The translations under genes and the position numbers were made by a program. The notes beneath the pieces are model-generated. The model was given only the letters and a program-made list of their open reading frames with translations, was not told the DNA's origin and ran no database searches. Of a DNA stretch of 64,000 bases, positions 17-63,241 are shown one piece after another (position 1 is the first letter of the stretch; each line of letters begins with the position of its first letter). Location of the stretch: the sequence record MH560358. One strand, 5' to 3'. Origin of the DNA: Escherichia virus KFS-EC.

Positions 17-2566
17 ATGTGGAGTAATACCGCAAACTATTTCGATGACCCGACCGCACGAAATCTTGATAAATTTGGGGCATTTCGTACTAATGATATG
101 GATGGTCATCTAGCACTTGCTTTGCATATTCCCCATCCTAGCGGTATAAATCATGCTCGTGGGTTTGATTTTACTTATGGTTCTAACGTTGTTCCTACTG
201 TAAAAACCTATGGTTATAACGCTGATGGTGTATTGGCATATTCATATCGCATGTATCACGAAGGTGATAAGCCTAGTCCGTCAGAATTAAATGTATACAG
301 CAAACAAGAAGTAGACCGGATGTTCCAGAAGACCATCAACTTTGGTGTAGAAACTGGATGGTTTAAAATTGCTACCGCCTTTATTCCGCAAAATGATGGA
401 CGTAGCTTGAAAATTAGATTGATTGGTGGAAGTGGGTGGAACGTAGGACAAACTGGACAATGTAATATTATTGAACTTGTTATAAGGACTAGCAACGGTT
501 CGCCTAAAGGAATTAACTTTGTTGCGTATCATCATGTTTCTGGTTACGAAAATCAATTTTGTGCCATTAATACAGGTGATGACACTTATGATATCTATGC
601 ATATTACTTCGAATTTACTAATATGGTAATGGCTGAATATCAAGCGTCCAGCGGTGTTAATTTAACTGTACTTGATCGACCTGAATATGTCGGCGAAAAA
701 CCTGTAGCTGATCATATCTATGATGCATATACAATATACTCCTTTAACAGTTTCAGTAACCGTGGAACGTTAAATTTTGCTGGAAACCCTCAAGGCCAAT
801 ATGACATTGAGCATTTGAACGTGCAACAAACTAACAGCAAAAAGATGTTGCGTCGCTTCCGTAGTTCTGGTCCTGCCACTATCTGGCATGAGACAGTTGA
901 TGATAACCAGTATCGTCTTGCTACTGGATACGAAGATACAAATCAGGAATTATTGCTGACAGCAACATCCGGGTTACATGTCAAGAAATTAACATTGGAT
1001 GGCGGTGTCACTGGAAATTCTGGTATTGATATTCGTCGAGGACCAAACGAATCAAGCCATTTTAATTTCATGGATTATCGCACTGGACAAGATGTTCGTA
1101 ATGGTTGGTTTGGTTTTGGTGATGGAACAACCAAAGATTTTATTTGGTGGAACGATAACGGTCAAAACTCTATAAACCTGATTGAAGACGGTGAATTACA
1201 TATTACTGGCGGTAGAGGCCAGAAAATTGTAATGAATAGCGAAGTTGCATTATCTGAAAATGCTCGTTTGGCTGTTAAAGGTGGCAATTATGGCTTAATT
1301 TTTAGAAATGATGGCGTTGGCTTCCATATTCTTACCACAGATCTCGGTGATTCATTTGGACCGTGGAATACTCGTAGACCATTCAGCTATGATTTTGCGG
1401 ACGGTGGATTGTATTTAGGTGGTACTGCAACCGCTCGTTGTTTGCATCTGGGAATTGATGGTAGCACTCGTCTCGAAGACAACCTTTTCTTTAAAGCTGG
1501 TTCTCGTCAATCTATGGACTATATGGAACTAGTCCATTGGGGGGCAAGCAATACAGGTCGAAATAACGTTTTAAGTCTTCGTGACTCAAAAGGATTTTTC
1601 GCAGAATTTGAACGATTGGGTGATGATACCATTAAAAACACCTTCTTCGGGAAACTTAAAGTTAATCGTGGTTCTGACGCAATCGTCATGAATGCCGAAA
1701 CGGGTGATTCGTCTATATATTTGCTGGGTACTTGTGCTGATAATAACAACTGGTATATCGGTAAAGGTGGTGCTGATAATGGATTAGCGTTCTATAGCTA
1801 TGCTACTAATGCTGCTATCAATATTACAAACGCTGGTGATATCGCGCTAAGTCCAAAAGGTGTCGAAATGACTCATGTCAATAACGTTCGATTCTATGTT
1901 CATGGTGAACGTTGGACTGCTAGCCAATCTGGAGGCTGGGGCGATCAATGGGGATTAGAAGCGCCGATATTTGTCGATCATGGTTATGTTGGACCAGATA
2001 GCTATTATCCAATTATTAAAGGAAGAAGTTTAATCACCAATCAAGGGTATACAACTGCCGTCGATTTTGGTCTTCGTCGTGTTCCTCAAAATTGGGGGCA
2101 AGCTATTATTCGTGTTGGATCTGCGGATGCATCGCCAGCGGCTGGTCATCCTCAAGCTGTATTCGAGTTCCATCATGATGGTACTTTCTATTCTCCTGGT
2201 AATGGTAACTTTAACGATGTTTATATTCGTTCCGATGGTCGTCTGAAAATTAATGTTGAAGATTACGAAGAAAATGCGGTGGATAAGGTAAATAAACTCA
2301 AAGTTAAAACCTACGATAAAGTTAAATCTCTTAATGACCGAGAAGTTATAGGTCATGAGATTGGTATTATCGCACAGGATTTACAAGAGGTATTACCGGA
2401 AGCTGTTAAAACCGCAAAAATTGGTGGTCTTGATAACCCAGAAGAAATTTTAACAATTTCAAACTCCGCAGTGAACGCGCTTTTAATTAAAGCGGTCCAA
2501 GAAATGAGCGAAGAAAATAAACTTCTTCGTGAACGTCTTGCTGCAATTGAAGCTAAATTAGGGTAA
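17..2566 (+). CDS. tail fiber protein, 3' portion (gp37-like long tail fiber distal subunit) with C-terminal intramolecular chaperone domain; 5' end lies outside the window
   Basis: 849-aa ORF open to window start; last ~130 aa (DKVKSLNDREVIGHEIGIIAQDLQEV... then coiled coil) fit the tail-fiber/endosialidase intramolecular chaperone pattern; sits just upstream of holin t as gene 37/38 does in T4. Confidence 0.6.
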   Translation: MWSNTANYFDDPTARNLDKFGAFRTNDMDGHLALALHIPHPSGINHARGFDFTYGSNVVPTVKTYGYNADGVLAYSYRMYHEGDKPSPSELNVYSKQEVDRMFQKTINFGVETGWFKIATAFIPQNDGRSLKIRLIGGSGWNVGQTGQCNIIELVIRTSNGSPKGINFVAYHHVSGYENQFCAINTGDDTYDIYAYYFEFTNMVMAEYQASSGVNLTVLDRPEYVGEKPVADHIYDAYTIYSFNSFSNRGTLNFAGNPQGQYDIEHLNVQQTNSKKMLRRFRSSGPATIWHETVDDNQYRLATGYEDTNQELLLTATSGLHVKKLTLDGGVTGNSGIDIRRGPNESSHFNFMDYRTGQDVRNGWFGFGDGTTKDFIWWNDNGQNSINLIEDGELHITGGRGQKIVMNSEVALSENARLAVKGGNYGLIFRNDGVGFHILTTDLGDSFGPWNTRRPFSYDFADGGLYLGGTATARCLHLGIDGSTRLEDNLFFKAGSRQSMDYMELVHWGASNTGRNNVLSLRDSKGFFAEFERLGDDTIKNTFFGKLKVNRGSDAIVMNAETGDSSIYLLGTCADNNNWYIGKGGADNGLAFYSYATNAAINITNAGDIALSPKGVEMTHVNNVRFYVHGERWTASQSGGWGDQWGLEAPIFVDHGYVGPDSYYPIIKGRSLITNQGYTTAVDFGLRRVPQNWGQAIIRVGSADASPAAGHPQAVFEFHHDGTFYSPGNGNFNDVYIRSDGRLKINVEDYEENAVDKVNKLKVKTYDKVKSLNDREVIGHEIGIIAQDLQEVLPEAVKTAKIGGLDNPEEILTISNSAVNALLIKAVQEMSEENKLLRERLAAIEAKLG

Positions 2567-5080: not shown

Positions 5081-5413
5081 TTACAGATGAAAACCTGTTA
5101 CGATCACCGCGTCGATCATACCGCTAGGAATAAACGGTTCGCCCTCTTTTATTTCAACTTTGAATTGATGCCATTTCGCTAATACTTCTTCCGGTACACC
5201 CAGCGATTCGGCGTCTGCTTTAGTTTCATCCATAATCCAACTAGGCTGCATGAGAGCATAGTTTACATAGTCCATTTCTGGGGTCATGTCATCAATGTTA
5301 ATATATTTGCAGTTGACGCGTTTCAGAATTTCAAATTCTTTATTATCAACCTGTACCATGTATAATTCAGTAGTTTCTGGAATCAGTTCCCACACAATCA
5401 GTACATTTTTCAT
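5081..5413 (-). CDS. hypothetical protein
   Basis: 110-aa ORF, tightly packed co-directional. Confidence 0.5.
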   Translation of the reverse strand: MKNVLIVWELIPETTELYMVQVDNKEFEILKRVNCKYINIDDMTPEMDYVNYALMQPSWIMDETKADAESLGVPEEVLAKWHQFKVEIKEGEPFIPSGMIDAVIVTGFHL

Positions 5414-5421
5414 AGTTCACC

Positions 5422-5790
5422 TCACTTAACAAAGATTTTCTTTAATGCTTTCAGGATCGTTGCTTCCGGCGCTTCTTCCGGTGGAGGAAGCAATTCTACC
5501 ACTTCCTCTTCCAACTCGATATAGTCTACCAGATATTCTACATAGAATGCAAGTGCTTCCATGAAATTAGATGCTACATCCGATTCACCACACGCGCCTA
5601 CATGCATTGTATAAACATCACTGCGATCAAGTTTGTGGATGCTTCCAAGATAGTTTCGGTTATACCAGACTTCCCACACTTTCAACTTTCCGGTTTTGGT
5701 TGCTGTTTTATAATCGGTTTCGTAATGATGCAATTGACGTTGCAAATCATTGATAATAACACATTTTTCGTAATTGTTTTGAATTTCCAT
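5422..5790 (-). CDS. hypothetical protein with acidic Pro-rich C-terminus
   Basis: 122-aa ORF. Confidence 0.5.
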   Translation of the reverse strand: MEIQNNYEKCVIINDLQRQLHHYETDYKTATKTGKLKVWEVWYNRNYLGSIHKLDRSDVYTMHVGACGESDVASNFMEALAFYVEYLVDYIELEEEVVELLPPPEEAPEATILKALKKIFVK

Positions 5791-5800
5791 GATGTAATCC

Positions 5801-5992
5801 TCACTTATCGTTAAGAAGTTCTAAAACTTTCTGTCGTACTTTGTCAATATTAGTTGATTCAAAAACTGTACGGTATCCCCAGCTTTGACCGTATGAGCGG
5901 TTGCAATCTCCATATCCCCATTGTTCAACCTGATAGTATTCAAGGAATGGGTGCTGCCGAACTATGATACCATCGCGATTAAAAATTACCAT
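5801..5992 (-). CDS. hypothetical small protein
   Basis: 63-aa ORF. Confidence 0.4.
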   Translation of the reverse strand: MVIFNRDGIIVRQHPFLEYYQVEQWGYGDCNRSYGQSWGYRTVFESTNIDKVRQKVLELLNDK

Positions 5993-6015
5993 AATATAAT
6001 CCTCACGTCAACAAC

Positions 6016-6297
6016 TTATTTTCGGTTGTACTTCTGCCACTTTCGGTAATACTGCTTGTAAAATTGTTTTGCGTTTTCACCATCTTTACTATACATGTTA
6101 TCTACCATCAAGTCAATAAGACCTCCCGGTGTCTGGTAGTTCCCCGCTCGGATAAGTTCTTTAATTAAATTGTCCTGATGATCTTTGTATACTACGTTAA
6201 TGATGGTCTTTTCTGCTTTCTTCGTCCCGATCATCCGGTGATTAGCTTTCATCGCATCCCACCAATCTTTTGTGATCTTCATGTTATTGAATTGCAT
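6016..6297 (-). CDS. hypothetical protein
   Basis: 93-aa ORF. Confidence 0.45.
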   Translation of the reverse strand: MQFNNMKITKDWWDAMKANHRMIGTKKAEKTIINVVYKDHQDNLIKELIRAGNYQTPGGLIDLMVDNMYSKDGENAKQFYKQYYRKWQKYNRK

Positions 6298-6308
6298 AAT
6301 TTAACCTC

Positions 6309-7067
6309 TTACTTGCAAACGTATTGATCTACATCAATTGCGCCACCGAATGTAGGATGACGTTTTTCGAATCGAATAGTTCCGTCGTTTGGTTCGAAAA
6401 CGGAGTATTCATATAGATCTTTCTTGCCAACATTCTTATAAAACCCGCCTTTAGTCATAACGGTTTCTTGTACGTTTGCTTTGTGTACGTTGTATTCATC
6501 AATGTATACAAAATCAACCATCTTCCCATTTTTAATTGTTACTTTAAGATCTCCTGGTTGGTTTCCATATTTTGCATACAGTGGGGCTTCTTTAATTTTG
6601 GTGGAAATTCCATCTTTCATACTCCACTCATAACGAACGGTGCATTGATAGGTAAAAGTTTCGACCTTCGGTTCTTCTACAACTTTTGCTTCCTGTTTCG
6701 GTTGTTCTTCGTCAACCTTCGCAGAAGTCTCTGAATCGCTTTCCGACGCAGTTTCTTCTTTAGGTAATACATTCATCAAGTTTTGAATTTGAGCGTTATA
6801 TACAGCCTCCAGTGGCTGAATCTGCCCGATATTGATCATTGTATCACGAACAGTTTTATTCCAGTTGCGTTGCTCTTGTTTAAGCGACAGATCAATCTTA
6901 ACAGCCTTAACATATACTTCATGAAGTTTAGAATCCAGTGCGGAGATTGACTCATTGGCACAAATAAACTTCTCTGATTTGGTAGTGGCTTTAGCGCAAT
7001 CAAAGGACGCAGCATTAGCACCGAAAGCAGTAGCAGAAAGAACGATAGCAGCGATAATGTTTTTCAT
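6309..7067 (-). CDS. secreted two-domain protein; N-terminal domain resembles the LprI/DUF1311 lysozyme-inhibitor-like fold
   Basis: Signal peptide MKNIIAAIVLSATAFGANA; then FDCAKATTKSEKFICANESISALDSKLHEVY...QRNW (CxxAxT...E..IC...LD..L..Y...Q..W pattern), acidic linker, ~110-aa C-terminal domain; RBS GAGGAA. Confidence 0.6.
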   Translation of the reverse strand: MKNIIAAIVLSATAFGANAASFDCAKATTKSEKFICANESISALDSKLHEVYVKAVKIDLSLKQEQRNWNKTVRDTMINIGQIQPLEAVYNAQIQNLMNVLPKEETASESDSETSAKVDEEQPKQEAKVVEEPKVETFTYQCTVRYEWSMKDGISTKIKEAPLYAKYGNQPGDLKVTIKNGKMVDFVYIDEYNVHKANVQETVMTKGGFYKNVGKKDLYEYSVFEPNDGTIRFEKRHPTFGGAIDVDQYVCK

Positions 7068-7095
7068 AATATATTCCTCAATGTTTTGTCTTGAT

Positions 7096-7130
7096 GGGAG
7101 TATCTTACTACTCCCTTAATCCGGTGTCAA
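7096..7130 (-). promoter_or_regulatory. early sigma70-type promoter with stem-loop over -10 (PeSL-like)
   Basis: minus strand TTGACA-17 bp-TAAGAT; GGGAGTA/TACTCCC inverted repeat encloses the -10; upstream of 6309..7067. Confidence 0.55.
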
Positions 7131-7595: not shown

Positions 7596-7634
7596 GTATG
7601 GGAGTATAATACTACTCCCATTTCTTTACGTCAA
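7596..7634 (-). promoter_or_regulatory. early sigma70-type promoter with stem-loop over -10 (PeSL-like)
   Basis: minus strand TTGACG-17-TATTAT with GGGAGTA..TACTCCC inverted repeat around -10. Confidence 0.55.
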
Positions 7635-29281: not shown

Positions 29282-29509
29282 CTATTCAGTTAATCCGTAA
29301 TACTTTAATTGCTTCATTGTTATTCGATCTTTGTAGTGCTCTTGAATTAACTTTTTCATCACATCAACATCGATCGTCACAAATACTTCGTTGCTGTGAT
29401 TTCCGTGAACTTTCTTGAAATGCTCTATGCCTTCCTCACGTTCACGTTTAATCTTTTCAATGTCTCTCATAATATATTTCTCACATTGGCGGGTATCGTA
29501 ACCCAACAC
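29282..29509 (-). CDS. hypothetical small protein
   Basis: 75-aa ORF between DNA polymerase and uvsX (where beta-gt/42/imm sit in T4). Confidence 0.45.
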   Translation of the reverse strand: MLGYDTRQCEKYIMRDIEKIKREREEGIEHFKKVHGNHSNEVFVTIDVDVMKKLIQEHYKDRITMKQLKYYGLTE

Positions 29510-50866: not shown

Positions 50867-50901
50867 GGGAGTATCTTACTACTCCCATTTCATGCTGTCA
50901 A
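50867..50901 (-). promoter_or_regulatory. early sigma70-type promoter with stem-loop over -10 (PeSL-like)
   Basis: minus strand TTGACA-17-TAAGAT inside GGGAGTA..TACTCCC inverted repeat; near-identical to element at 7096..7130. Confidence 0.55.
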
Positions 50902-59775: not shown

Positions 59776-60174
59776 TTAAGCCAATCGAGTGAGTTTATAA
59801 ATTGTTTTAAAGCATAGAGCTTTGATATCGTCTAAAACGCTCTGTAACGAGCTATCAACATCATTATAAATCTCACTAGCCATTTGCGTTAACTCTTGCA
59901 AATAGGCAATTTCGCTCATCTCCTTGCGGACGACCAACGTTGGCTGATAACGACCAGTGATCCCAATATTGGTTTCAGTGAAATCATCAACCAATTCTTG
60001 CATTTCAAGATAGAACTCTTCTAGAGCCTTATGTTTTGCATAAGATCCAGGACCAGTTACTCCAAAATGCGCAGAATGCATATAAGTAACACTCATCAGA
60101 CATTCACCGATAAAGCGGTCAACTTTATTAGCTTTCCCCTCTTCGGACGTCTTTAGAAAATCAATGAATTTCAT
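59776..60174 (-). CDS. ferritin/Dps-like protein
   Basis: 132 aa from ATG 60174 (GGAG RBS); MHSAHFGVTGPGSYAKHKALEEFYLEMQELVDDF resembles the Dps HW.VKGP.F..LHE.FEE.Y helix; start overlaps stop of upstream gene by 14 nt. Confidence 0.45.
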   Translation of the reverse strand: MKFIDFLKTSEEGKANKVDRFIGECLMSVTYMHSAHFGVTGPGSYAKHKALEEFYLEMQELVDDFTETNIGITGRYQPTLVVRKEMSEIAYLQELTQMASEIYNDVDSSLQSVLDDIKALCFKTIYKLTRLA

Positions 60175-60463
60175 GTTCTCTATTCTCCATATTATGCAAC
60201 ATAACAAACTGTTGTGCGGCATATTCCCCCATAATAAAACACTGCTTAGAATCCATACATTTACTACGAGCATACATCTTCATAATATGGGCATGAAATT
60301 TCTGGCTGGTTTCAATGGAAGGAGATATTTTGTTTACATATACTATCATTGCACCGTCGAAATAATCAGTAAAGTCACCAGTTGGATCATATTGATCAGC
60401 ACTGACACTTCCGACCGCAGTCAAGCATATTGCCGCTGTTAGAGTTTTACGAATAAATGACAT
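60161..60463 (-). CDS. secreted/periplasmic hypothetical protein
   Basis: 100 aa; signal peptide MSFIRKTLTAAICLTAVGSVSA. Confidence 0.5.
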   Translation of the reverse strand: MSFIRKTLTAAICLTAVGSVSADQYDPTGDFTDYFDGAMIVYVNKISPSIETSQKFHAHIMKMYARSKCMDSKQCFIMGEYAAQQFVMLHNMENREHEIH

Positions 60464-62283: not shown

Positions 62284-62643
62284 TTAGTCACGGGAAGACA
62301 ACCCAGCCATAAAACGGCTTAACAGTGTGTCGCGATAAGCAAAGCATAATTGCTTATCAGGGGCAGTATCACACAGGTTACGTTTTGTTTTAGCAAAGCT
62401 GGCAATACTCAGATCCCACGCTCGATTTTTTCGTTTTTCGTCTCGACCTTGTTTGTATGCTTCATCAAGTTCGAGCGCGATAAAATCACTACACATGTTA
62501 TCATCATCACAGAAAGTTTTAATGATCTTTTTGTTGATCTCAAATCCTTTGTATTCGAACTTTGGATAAGGGCGCTCATTACTAGCAAGCGCACCAGCAG
62601 AGAACATCATAGCAATCATAGCAATTATTGTCAACTTTTTCAT
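62284..62643 (-). CDS. secreted/periplasmic hypothetical protein
   Basis: 119 aa; signal peptide MKKLTIIAMIAMMFSAGALA; four Cys. Confidence 0.5.
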   Translation of the reverse strand: MKKLTIIAMIAMMFSAGALASNERPYPKFEYKGFEINKKIIKTFCDDDNMCSDFIALELDEAYKQGRDEKRKNRAWDLSIASFAKTKRNLCDTAPDKQLCFAYRDTLLSRFMAGLSSRD

Positions 62644-62650
62644 ATATTCC

Positions 62651-63241
62651 TCAATAGCGTTTAGTCTTAAGAATGCCTTTACTCTTTAGATGGTTAGCCT
62701 TTTTTAGTACGTCATCAGCATAACCTAATCCGGCTTTATAGTTCCATCCAGCATTGTAAGAAGCTAGCGCGAGTCTGATATTACCGTTTCGAATATCCAG
62801 CCAGTATGCTAACTCATCCATCGCGTAGAATGCAGAAACCTCGCGATTCATGATAAAGTTGATAGTCTGGCGATCACTCATTTTAACACCGCGCTTTGCA
62901 TTTTTCGCTTTCACCGTTTTAAGGTAATTTTGAAATAATCCATAAGCATGATGATTTTTCTTTGGTGCTAAGTTTGCACCCGCGCTTGATTCTTGCCATG
63001 CGATACCCGCCAGGATGTGACCTAAACCCTTTCCGTTATAGCGAATATTCGGATGGTACTTTTTCAACTTACCGCTTTTCTCGAATTGCTCGCCGTATTG
63101 ATAGGCGAAATGTAAATTATCTAGTTGGTGTGCTGTAAAGTTGTCTATCGGCGCTTTTTTGATCGGTGCGCTAGTCGATGCGTGTGTAGCACCAACGGCT
63201 AGTGACAGACTCAATACTATCGCTTTTAGAACTTTTAACAT
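62651..63241 (-). CDS. secreted lytic transglycosylase (SLT domain)
   Basis: 196 aa; signal peptide MLKVLKAIVLSLSLAVGATHA; SLT motifs GIAWQESS, GLFQ, AYNAG. Confidence 0.7.
   Translation of the reverse strand: MLKVLKAIVLSLSLAVGATHASTSAPIKKAPIDNFTAHQLDNLHFAYQYGEQFEKSGKLKKYHPNIRYNGKGLGHILAGIAWQESSAGANLAPKKNHHAYGLFQNYLKTVKAKNAKRGVKMSDRQTINFIMNREVSAFYAMDELAYWLDIRNGNIRLALASYNAGWNYKAGLGYADDVLKKANHLKSKGILKTKRY

Follow-up and report, generated by a model that had tools for sequence, protein, structure and literature searches.

What does a virulent T4-type phage do with a probably exported, two-domain protein that it would make early in infection? The question is raised by a gene at 6309..7067 on the minus strand of the 64,000-nucleotide (nt) stretch of Escherichia virus KFS-EC that we analyzed (record MH560358; hereafter, the window). 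The coding sequence is complete and specifies 252 amino acids (aa) plus a stop codon. An original prediction, made from the sequence alone, described its product as a secreted protein with an LprI/DUF1311-like N-terminal domain and proposed a role in protecting the envelope, by superinfection exclusion or by lysozyme inhibition. The source phage belongs to the Krischviruses, virulent coliphages of the T4 type that resemble RB49, in keeping with the lytic context assumed in that prediction; the gene and its surroundings (1.9 kb) are 92-97% identical to ~60 such genomes. The open reading frame (ORF) is orthologous to RB49p262 of RB49, phi1p262 of Phi1 and phrog_14799, labeled "hypothetical" in the two phages and "unknown function" in the last. 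The gene was present in all 57 Krischvirus records that tblastn found, and intact in every one. The window gene differs from that of RB49 by 14 synonymous and 3 non-synonymous codons and is thus under purifying selection. Sequence comparison confirms that the 252-aa ORF is a real gene and not a chance ORF.

The most informative feature of the gene had been missed by the original prediction: its C-terminal domain is a cassette with sharp boundaries, varies greatly between alleles and is shared with a prophage. Across 15 homologs, mean pairwise identity is 97.6% in the N-terminal domain, 72.5% in the linker and 29.9% in the C-terminal domain, where it falls to a minimum of 8.8%. Past residue ~118 of this alignment, C142, G153 and C251 are the only invariant positions. 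The C-terminal domain, which is modeled as a beta-barrel (see below), falls into at least four classes. Class A, our reference, contains the window allele and RB49 and accounts for 43 GenBank records. C-domain identity to class A is 36-40% in class B (P0003, P0005, P0007 and UPWr_E1), 28-34% in class C (Phi1/P0010 and P0012-14) and 13-20% in class D (JSE and P0015-20). Eleven records at 64-66% full-length identity probably belong to class C, Phi1 being the only one verified. The alleles cross species: Ec_Makalu_001, a Krischvirus gec3s, carries class A, and GEC-3S itself is of the 65% type.

How are such divergent C-terminal domains exchanged within an otherwise constant gene? We compared the DNA of Phi1, JSE and UPWr_E1 with the window. 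All three are 94-98% identical to it up to gene nt 402-408, which is the end of the linker; there is then no detectable DNA homology over the barrel, and identity of 94-98.5% resumes at the stop codon or immediately beyond it. Perhaps the barrel is a target of hypermutation, as in diversity-generating retroelements? The window holds no template repeat or second copy of the C-domain DNA, and among class A members the cassette is no less conserved than the flanking DNA (97.2% versus 96.2-96.6%), with few amino acid changes. These observations rule out hypermutation of that type. Given the sharp cassette boundaries, the conservation within class A and the lack of a template repeat, hypermutation is also unnecessary: the pattern reflects old, discrete alleles that have been moved by recombination within the repetitive linker.

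The linker itself is the acidic, low-complexity segment of the original prediction. It spans residues 101-135 (6663..6767, minus strand), is rich in E, K, P and S, has a pI of 4.3, and contains the recombination breakpoints. It is predicted to be largely disordered, with predicted local distance difference test (pLDDT) values below 50 at residues 101-131 in a first structural model and at residues 107-123 in a second. Its length varies: the FL04 linker is 4 residues shorter and that of P0002 is 12 residues shorter, and other classes have extra (E/K/P/Q/V)n repeats. Slippage or recombination in the repeats that encode the linker could account for this variation.

The same gene plan occurs outside the Krischviruses. 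Of 5426 complete Escherichia coli genomes, 26 match the phage gene at 94-96% identity over its first 371-408 nt, and homology then ends; in the prophage copy it ends at gene nt 371. In the three strains that we examined, the gene lies at the edge of one shared prophage (with terminase, Rha and other genes), a typical moron position. The prophage there adjoins a hicAB toxin-antitoxin locus in which hicB is annotated as truncated, and in 14EC029 hicA is also frameshifted. The prophage flanks are 92-98% identical among the three strains, but the barrels differ, being of class B in H2, class C in 14EC029 and class D in E275. Hence, a virulent lineage of T4-type phages and a temperate element unrelated to it have this polymorphism in common. 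The prophage barrels are 48-56% identical to the closest Krischvirus barrels, and recent exchange at the DNA level between phage and prophage is seen only in the segment encoding the head and linker. More distant relatives have the same layout of signal peptide, ASFDC-DUF1311 head, K/E/P-rich linker and two-cysteine C-module: the proteins of the Klebsiella Marfavirus VAC36 (250 aa), the Aeromonas phage CC2 (239 aa) and the phage-plasmid SSU5 (232 aa). The C-modules of these three are unrelated to the Krischvirus barrel. In the literature that we searched, the gene was already known as a database entry, as was its weak link to DUF1311; we did not find there the constant-head, cassette-tail plan, its sharp recombination boundaries or its sharing with a prophage.

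Is the protein exported? Residues 1-19 (7011..7067, minus strand) read MKNIIAAIVLSATAFGANA and are followed by ASFDC. Their layout is that of a Sec/signal peptidase I-type signal peptide, as the original prediction had held: an n-region of MK precedes a core of 13 hydrophobic residues (IIAAIVLSATAFG), and an AXA cleavage site (ANA|A) follows. All 21 homologs in the alignment have the same junction, AASFDC. Since Cys24 is preceded by S-F-D, there is no lipobox. The four cysteines form two candidate pairs, 24/36 and 142/251, each inside one domain. We judged location by such sequence heuristics (AXA site, no lipobox and paired cysteines). The signal peptide together with the two candidate disulfides leads us to predict a soluble periplasmic protein, and export to the periplasm is probable.

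The N-terminal module comprises residues 20-100 (6768..7010, minus strand), with three predicted helices, the Cys24/Cys36 pair and a QRxW motif; the segment FDCAKATTKSEKFICANESISALDSKLHEVY...QRNW, on which the original prediction had drawn, is present in the translated ORF. Residues 24-76 match Pfam LprI (PF07007) with an E value of 6e-5 and a score of 23.8 bits, above the gathering score of 22 bits, which bears out the predicted LprI/DUF1311-like domain. Six diverse relatives (Phi1, JSE, P0019, Klebsiella VAC36, Aeromonas CC2 and SSU5) each exceed the same cutoff at 23.3-28.4 bits. The match covers profile positions 1-71 of 106, and all matches in the family are restricted to positions 1 to about 70. 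It is partial because the second cysteine pair of DUF1311 (RNxC-x4-C) is replaced by RDTMINIGQIQP, with the loop TMINIGQIQP, while the helix layout is kept whole. Only the C24/C36 pair remains, so that the protein has one pair where DUF1311 is described by four conserved cysteines (as quoted in PMC7933661). AlphaFold2 with a deeper alignment placed helices at residues 30-58, 61-80 and 83-100 with pLDDT values of 75-89. A weak DUF1311 similarity of the RB49 gene had been listed in 2006 at an E value of 0.2 (PMC1524935). Our wider survey of DUF1311 architectures covered 14 matches from a word-indexed search with the N-domain profile. Neither NCBIfam nor PADLOC searches returned a significant match for the protein, and searches of PDB sequences with the protein and with the N-domain profile gave no meaningful match. 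The window gene has one peculiarity in this module: codon 60 (6888-6890) is CTG (Leu60), and every other family member examined has CCG (Pro60) at this position, which is the turn between helices 2 and 3.

The C-terminal domain that the original prediction put at ~110 aa is a 117-aa module, residues 136-252 (6312..6662, minus strand, class A allele). It is confidently modeled as an antiparallel beta-barrel of about eight strands, with pLDDT values of 90-94 except for one loop block at 68. In the model, the first strand has Cys142 near its start and the last strand ends at Cys251, a placement that suggests a disulfide staple. A phmmer search of the C-domain against 1.84 billion representatives returned its own family and two repeat-protein artefacts and nothing else. 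A profile of 10 C-domains run against 5.8 billion proteins had a single find, a gene fragment, P0023. A Foldseek search against the PDB gave no match at E<=0.001.

Do these two modules make the protein a lysozyme inhibitor? The original prediction spoke of a lysozyme-inhibitor-like fold. The family match to DUF1311/LprI stands, but the inhibitor reading is only partly supported: it rests on the name of the Pfam entry, the second cysteine pair is missing, and the part of the eponymous protein that is credited with inhibition lies elsewhere. M. tuberculosis LprI contains DUF1311 and an MliC domain, and the MliC domain was shown to be sufficient for lysozyme resistance; the "lysozyme inhibitor" annotation of DUF1311 is not backed by experiments, and ScwA, a DUF1311 protein of Salmonella, showed no role in lysozyme resistance (PMC7933661). 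The phage protein resembles LprI (composition as given in PMC7933661) in having two modules, DUF1311 and a small beta-barrel. Unlike LprI, which is a lipoprotein, it is predicted to be soluble, and its barrel is polymorphic, lacks an MliC sequence signal and has a likeness of fold class only. The eight-stranded antiparallel barrel architecture of MliC/PliC (PF09864) is shared, in the model, by the phage C-module. However, PF09864 did not match the window protein at E<=10 or representatives of the three other classes at E<=1. Compared with the MliC, PliC, PhiA and ACP barrel inhibitors, the C-module showed no sequence or profile match, and unrelated barrels (Cap15, OmpW, FABP and NHBA) scored equally well or better. 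The inhibitory loops of MliC/PliC carry the motifs SxSGxxY and YxxxTKG. Class A happens to have an "MTKGG", at a position that is not conserved in classes B-D.

When would the protein be made? The 70-nt intergenic region upstream of the gene contains, by promoter scan, TTGACA-17-TAAGAT. These elements are part of a promoter-early stem-loop (PeSL) cassette at 7096..7130 on the minus strand, with the -35 hexamer TTGACA at 7130-7125, a 17-nt spacer and the -10 hexamer TAAGAT at 7107-7102. A 7-bp stem-loop (GGGAGTA-GTAAGA-TACTCCC; 7115-7096, minus strand) overlaps the -10 hexamer, with a folding energy of -13.3 kcal/mol and a z score of -2.2. Direct reading of the sequence places a Shine-Dalgarno motif, GAGGA, at 7075..7079 (minus strand), 7 nt before the ATG. 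The composite TTGACA-N9-GGGAGTA-N6-TACTCCC has 3 copies in the window versus 0 expected by chance, the two others being at 7600-7634 and 50867-50901 (both minus strand). PeSLs have been shown to work as early promoters and terminators in the hyperplastic regions of RB49 and Phi1 (PMC2839356). All parts of the PeSL definition are found here: a sigma-70 consensus, an AT-rich upstream region, an adjacent stem-loop, a downstream ORFan and a hyperplastic setting. The promoter sequence at this site, together with the published work on this type of element, supports early transcription of the gene from the PeSL promoter and agrees with the early, promoter-driven expression originally predicted. The gene thus resembles the PeSL-flanked ORFan cassettes of RB49 and Phi1 (Arbiol et al. 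2010) in its canonical upstream PeSL and hyperplastic location. It differs from them in what is exchanged: a whole ORF between two PeSLs in those cassettes, and here an intragenic segment from the linker to the stop codon.

If the barrel is a binding module, what might it bind? We asked whether its class follows any other phage gene. Both main barrel classes occur with both classes of the gp38 adhesin, and among class A phages the tip of gp37 ranges from 64 to 91% identity. Masking of the phage's own receptor is ruled out by this independence of barrel class from gp38 and the gp37 tip. All Krischviruses, whatever their barrel class, have gp5 proteins that are at least 98.8% identical and carry a PF00959 GH24 lysozyme domain, a conservation that parallels the invariant N-module. 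The upstream and downstream genes and the holin are 94-98.5% identical across barrel classes. Neither gp5 nor the holin nor the neighboring genes of the phage were seen to vary with the barrel, and a toxin-immunity pair with an adjacent gene is ruled out since the neighbors do not co-vary with barrel class. The independence of barrel class from gp38, the gp37 tip, gp5, the holin and the neighbors makes all of these unlikely partners. The target of the barrel is probably a host or competitor molecule, external to the phage.

The gp37 tip of this phage is itself unusual for the genus. Within the window gp37 (17-2566, plus strand), the distal tail-fiber subunit, residues 500-770 of the receptor-proximal tip are 91% identical to MIZ4 and MIZ5 only, ~68% identical to the gp37 of T6-like Tequatrovirus and 64-80% identical to the other Krischviruses listed, which suggests from sequence that the tip is a cross-genus mosaic. 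We take the gp37 C-terminus to resemble an intramolecular chaperone segment.

DUF1311 proteins of bacteria have been linked to the neutralization of periplasm-acting, cell-wall-targeting toxins. In enterohemorrhagic E. coli, the DUF1311 protein Etsi4 rescues the toxicity of Etse4 when the two are co-expressed, as a type VI secretion system (T6SS) immunity protein (PMC12981562). In Pantoea, genes for signal-peptide-bearing LprI-domain proteins directly follow those for T6SS effectors with lysozyme-like and pesticin domains (PMC9796082; bioRxiv 2026). The phage protein resembles these PF07007 proteins (Etsi4 and the Pantoea Psi15 type) in its signal peptide, the helical character of its modeled N-module, its Pfam score above cutoff and the mature N-terminal motif SFDC...E..IC...L..LD..L...Y...QR.W...R. 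It differs from the immunity proteins in that it has lost the second cysteine pair, is fused through a linker to a polymorphic barrel, is encoded by a phage and has no adjacent effector gene.

Taken with the phage setting, these likenesses bring to mind Spackle (gp61.3) of T4, an early periplasmic protein that inhibits the gp5 tail lysozyme (PMC7650644). Like Spackle, the phage protein is predicted to be an early, small and soluble periplasmic protein of a T4-type phage with a cleaved signal peptide, and Spackle offers the closest model for how the protein might work; the two differ in fold and size, and Spackle is a single domain without a polymorphic module. We tentatively favor, while giving it clearly less than an even chance, a Spackle-like periplasmic immunity or superinfection-exclusion factor equipped with a polymorphic specificity module. 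Envelope protection, the role originally proposed, is thus plausible. In infected cells and in lysogens carrying the prophage, the protein would bind and neutralize envelope attackers that arrive from outside. The likeliest targets would be peptidoglycan hydrolases of the lysozyme-like kind, for example the GH24 tail lysozymes that T-even-type phages bring in on superinfection, T6SS muramidases or pesticin-type bacteriocins. The conserved DUF1311 module might serve as a generic hydrolase-binding or docking part, and the polymorphic barrel might set or extend target specificity. The protein would be a functional analog of Spackle and not a homolog. Homology was rejected: the VAC36 "Spackle" gave a blastp E value of 0.9 against the N-module and, by tblastn, a best E value of 0.87 against segments of the window and of RB49. 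The Krischvirus endolysin is an L-Ala-D-Glu peptidase and not a lysozyme (PMC10487532), so that lysis by the phage itself would not be hindered if it made a periplasmic inhibitor of lysozymes early on. We found no Spackle or Imm homolog at the T4-syntenic sites. The only ORF between uvsX and the DNA polymerase gene, the site syntenic to T4 imm, is at 29282-29509 (minus strand) and encodes a hydrophilic protein of 75 aa; we rejected it as Imm for its hydrophilic character and lack of a membrane segment.

Several points weigh against an immunity function of this kind. We know of no biochemically proven inhibitory mechanism for DUF1311. The search for Spackle that found none was narrow, covering ~74 kb of genome with one probe. 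The two kinds of protein can coexist, since VAC36 has a gene annotated as spackle in addition to one for a two-module protein with an LprI domain. Finally, ScwA of Salmonella is a soluble periplasmic DUF1311 protein that gives no protection from lysozyme (PMC7933661). As to the probe, the VAC36 record contains doubtful product names, such as a 55-aa "major capsid protein" and a 66-aa "DNA packaging ATPase", and its label "spackle periplasmic protein" is therefore unverified; the N-terminus of the probe is signal-peptide-like.

ScwA also suggests a different role. DUF1311 might bind and stabilize host lytic transglycosylases or other murein enzymes and so remodel the wall for lysis preparation, DNA entry or assembly, with the barrel as an accessory. 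ScwA increases the amount of MltD, a lytic transglycosylase; its overproduction leads to lysis and, as noted, it does not protect from lysozyme (PMC7933661). A P. aeruginosa YecT/DUF1311 gene scored beside peptidoglycan genes in a beta-lactam transposon screen, and an invariant N-module is what a conserved host target would lead one to expect. Yet such a target leaves unexplained why a virulent phage and a prophage alike maintain deeply divergent, recombining C-modules, and ScwA differs in architecture, with a C-terminal LprI domain and four cysteines. We consider this role unlikely. Could the barrel instead bind the periplasmic face of an outer membrane or Tol/Ton protein, each class blocking another entry route, in the manner of the exclusion factors Llp of T5 and Cor? 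Discrete polymorphic classes, the moron position in the prophage and early expression all fit, and Llp provides a precedent for a small, disulfide-containing periplasmic binder (PMC9586334). The phage protein has no lipobox, however, unlike Llp and Cor; the uncoupling of barrel class from gp38 and gp37 means that the phage's own receptor is not masked; and the strictly conserved DUF1311 module is left without a role. Receptor or channel masking therefore also seems improbable to us.

The gene lies ~2.3 kb from the holin gene t and near rIIA/rIIB, and its product, like RI, would be both periplasmic and early. Might it be an accessory to lysis timing, an antiholin-like or lysis-inhibition signal acting with the t/rI/rIII system? 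The holin and its neighborhood remain 94-98.5% conserved whatever the barrel class, a separate rI homolog is present at 60161..60463, and the prophage copies are away from any T4-type lysis genes; we regard this role as very unlikely. We give still less credence to a classical LprI/MliC-type inhibitor of animal c-type lysozyme that would shield infected cells or lysogens living in the gut. The two-module resemblance to LprI described above would suit it, but polymorphic classes are not what selection by one conserved enzyme of animals would produce, no class has an MliC Pfam signal, the MliC/PliC loop motifs are not conserved across classes, and Foldseek gives no specific link. Nor do we expect the gene to be a dispensable ORFan in which recombination through PeSLs or the linker has produced C-terminal variation as a neutral by-product. 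It does sit in a hyperplastic region with many PeSLs and ORFans, and its neighbors are all of unknown function. Against neutrality stand the intact gene in 57 of 57 Krischvirus records, purifying selection that extends to comparisons within class A, structural cysteines and a glycine conserved in all classes, and the retention of the same classes in an unrelated prophage. A neutral origin is accordingly highly improbable in our estimation.

A more ambitious form of the immunity reading, which we regard as doubtful, is that these proteins constitute a modular coliphage immunity system. A constant DUF1311 dock would be combined with a swappable, disulfide-stapled barrel cassette; balancing selection would maintain the classes, which virulent T4-type phages and temperate prophages would pass to one another. 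Each class might then neutralize different envelope attackers, among them the tail lysozymes or tips of rival phages, T6SS muramidases and bacteriocins. If this is true, the Klebsiella, Aeromonas and SSU5-like proteins with the same plan would represent a general and so far unrecognized class of phage exclusion factors.

Only a few proteins, among them Imm, Spackle and Llp of T5, have given an understanding of how T4-type phages exclude superinfecting phages and protect the envelope. A genus-wide early periplasmic protein with a frozen head and a deeply divergent, recombining tail looks like the product of molecular conflict. If the barrel classes are exclusion or immunity specificities, they would bear on the interference of therapeutic Krischvirus cocktails with one another and with lysogens; DUF1311, a widespread and poorly characterized domain, would gain a testable role, and the barrel would offer a small binding scaffold that nature has already diversified. 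If the protein is instead a simple housekeeping factor, the outcome is a routine annotation, that of an exported protein of the DUF1311 family.

Variation near the gene is not confined to the cassette. Over ~5309-6308, the 1 kb downstream (minus strand), class A phages split into two haplotype groups, with identities of 87-89% versus 97-99%. Here the window is 88-92% identical to all class A phages, which points to a second local mosaic adjoining the gene. Elsewhere in the window, a crude scan picked out two ORFs with signal-peptide-like N-termini, at 62284-62643 and 62651-63241 (both minus strand); one matches phrog_1256, "valyl tRNA synthetase modifier", and the other matches phrog_600, of unknown function.

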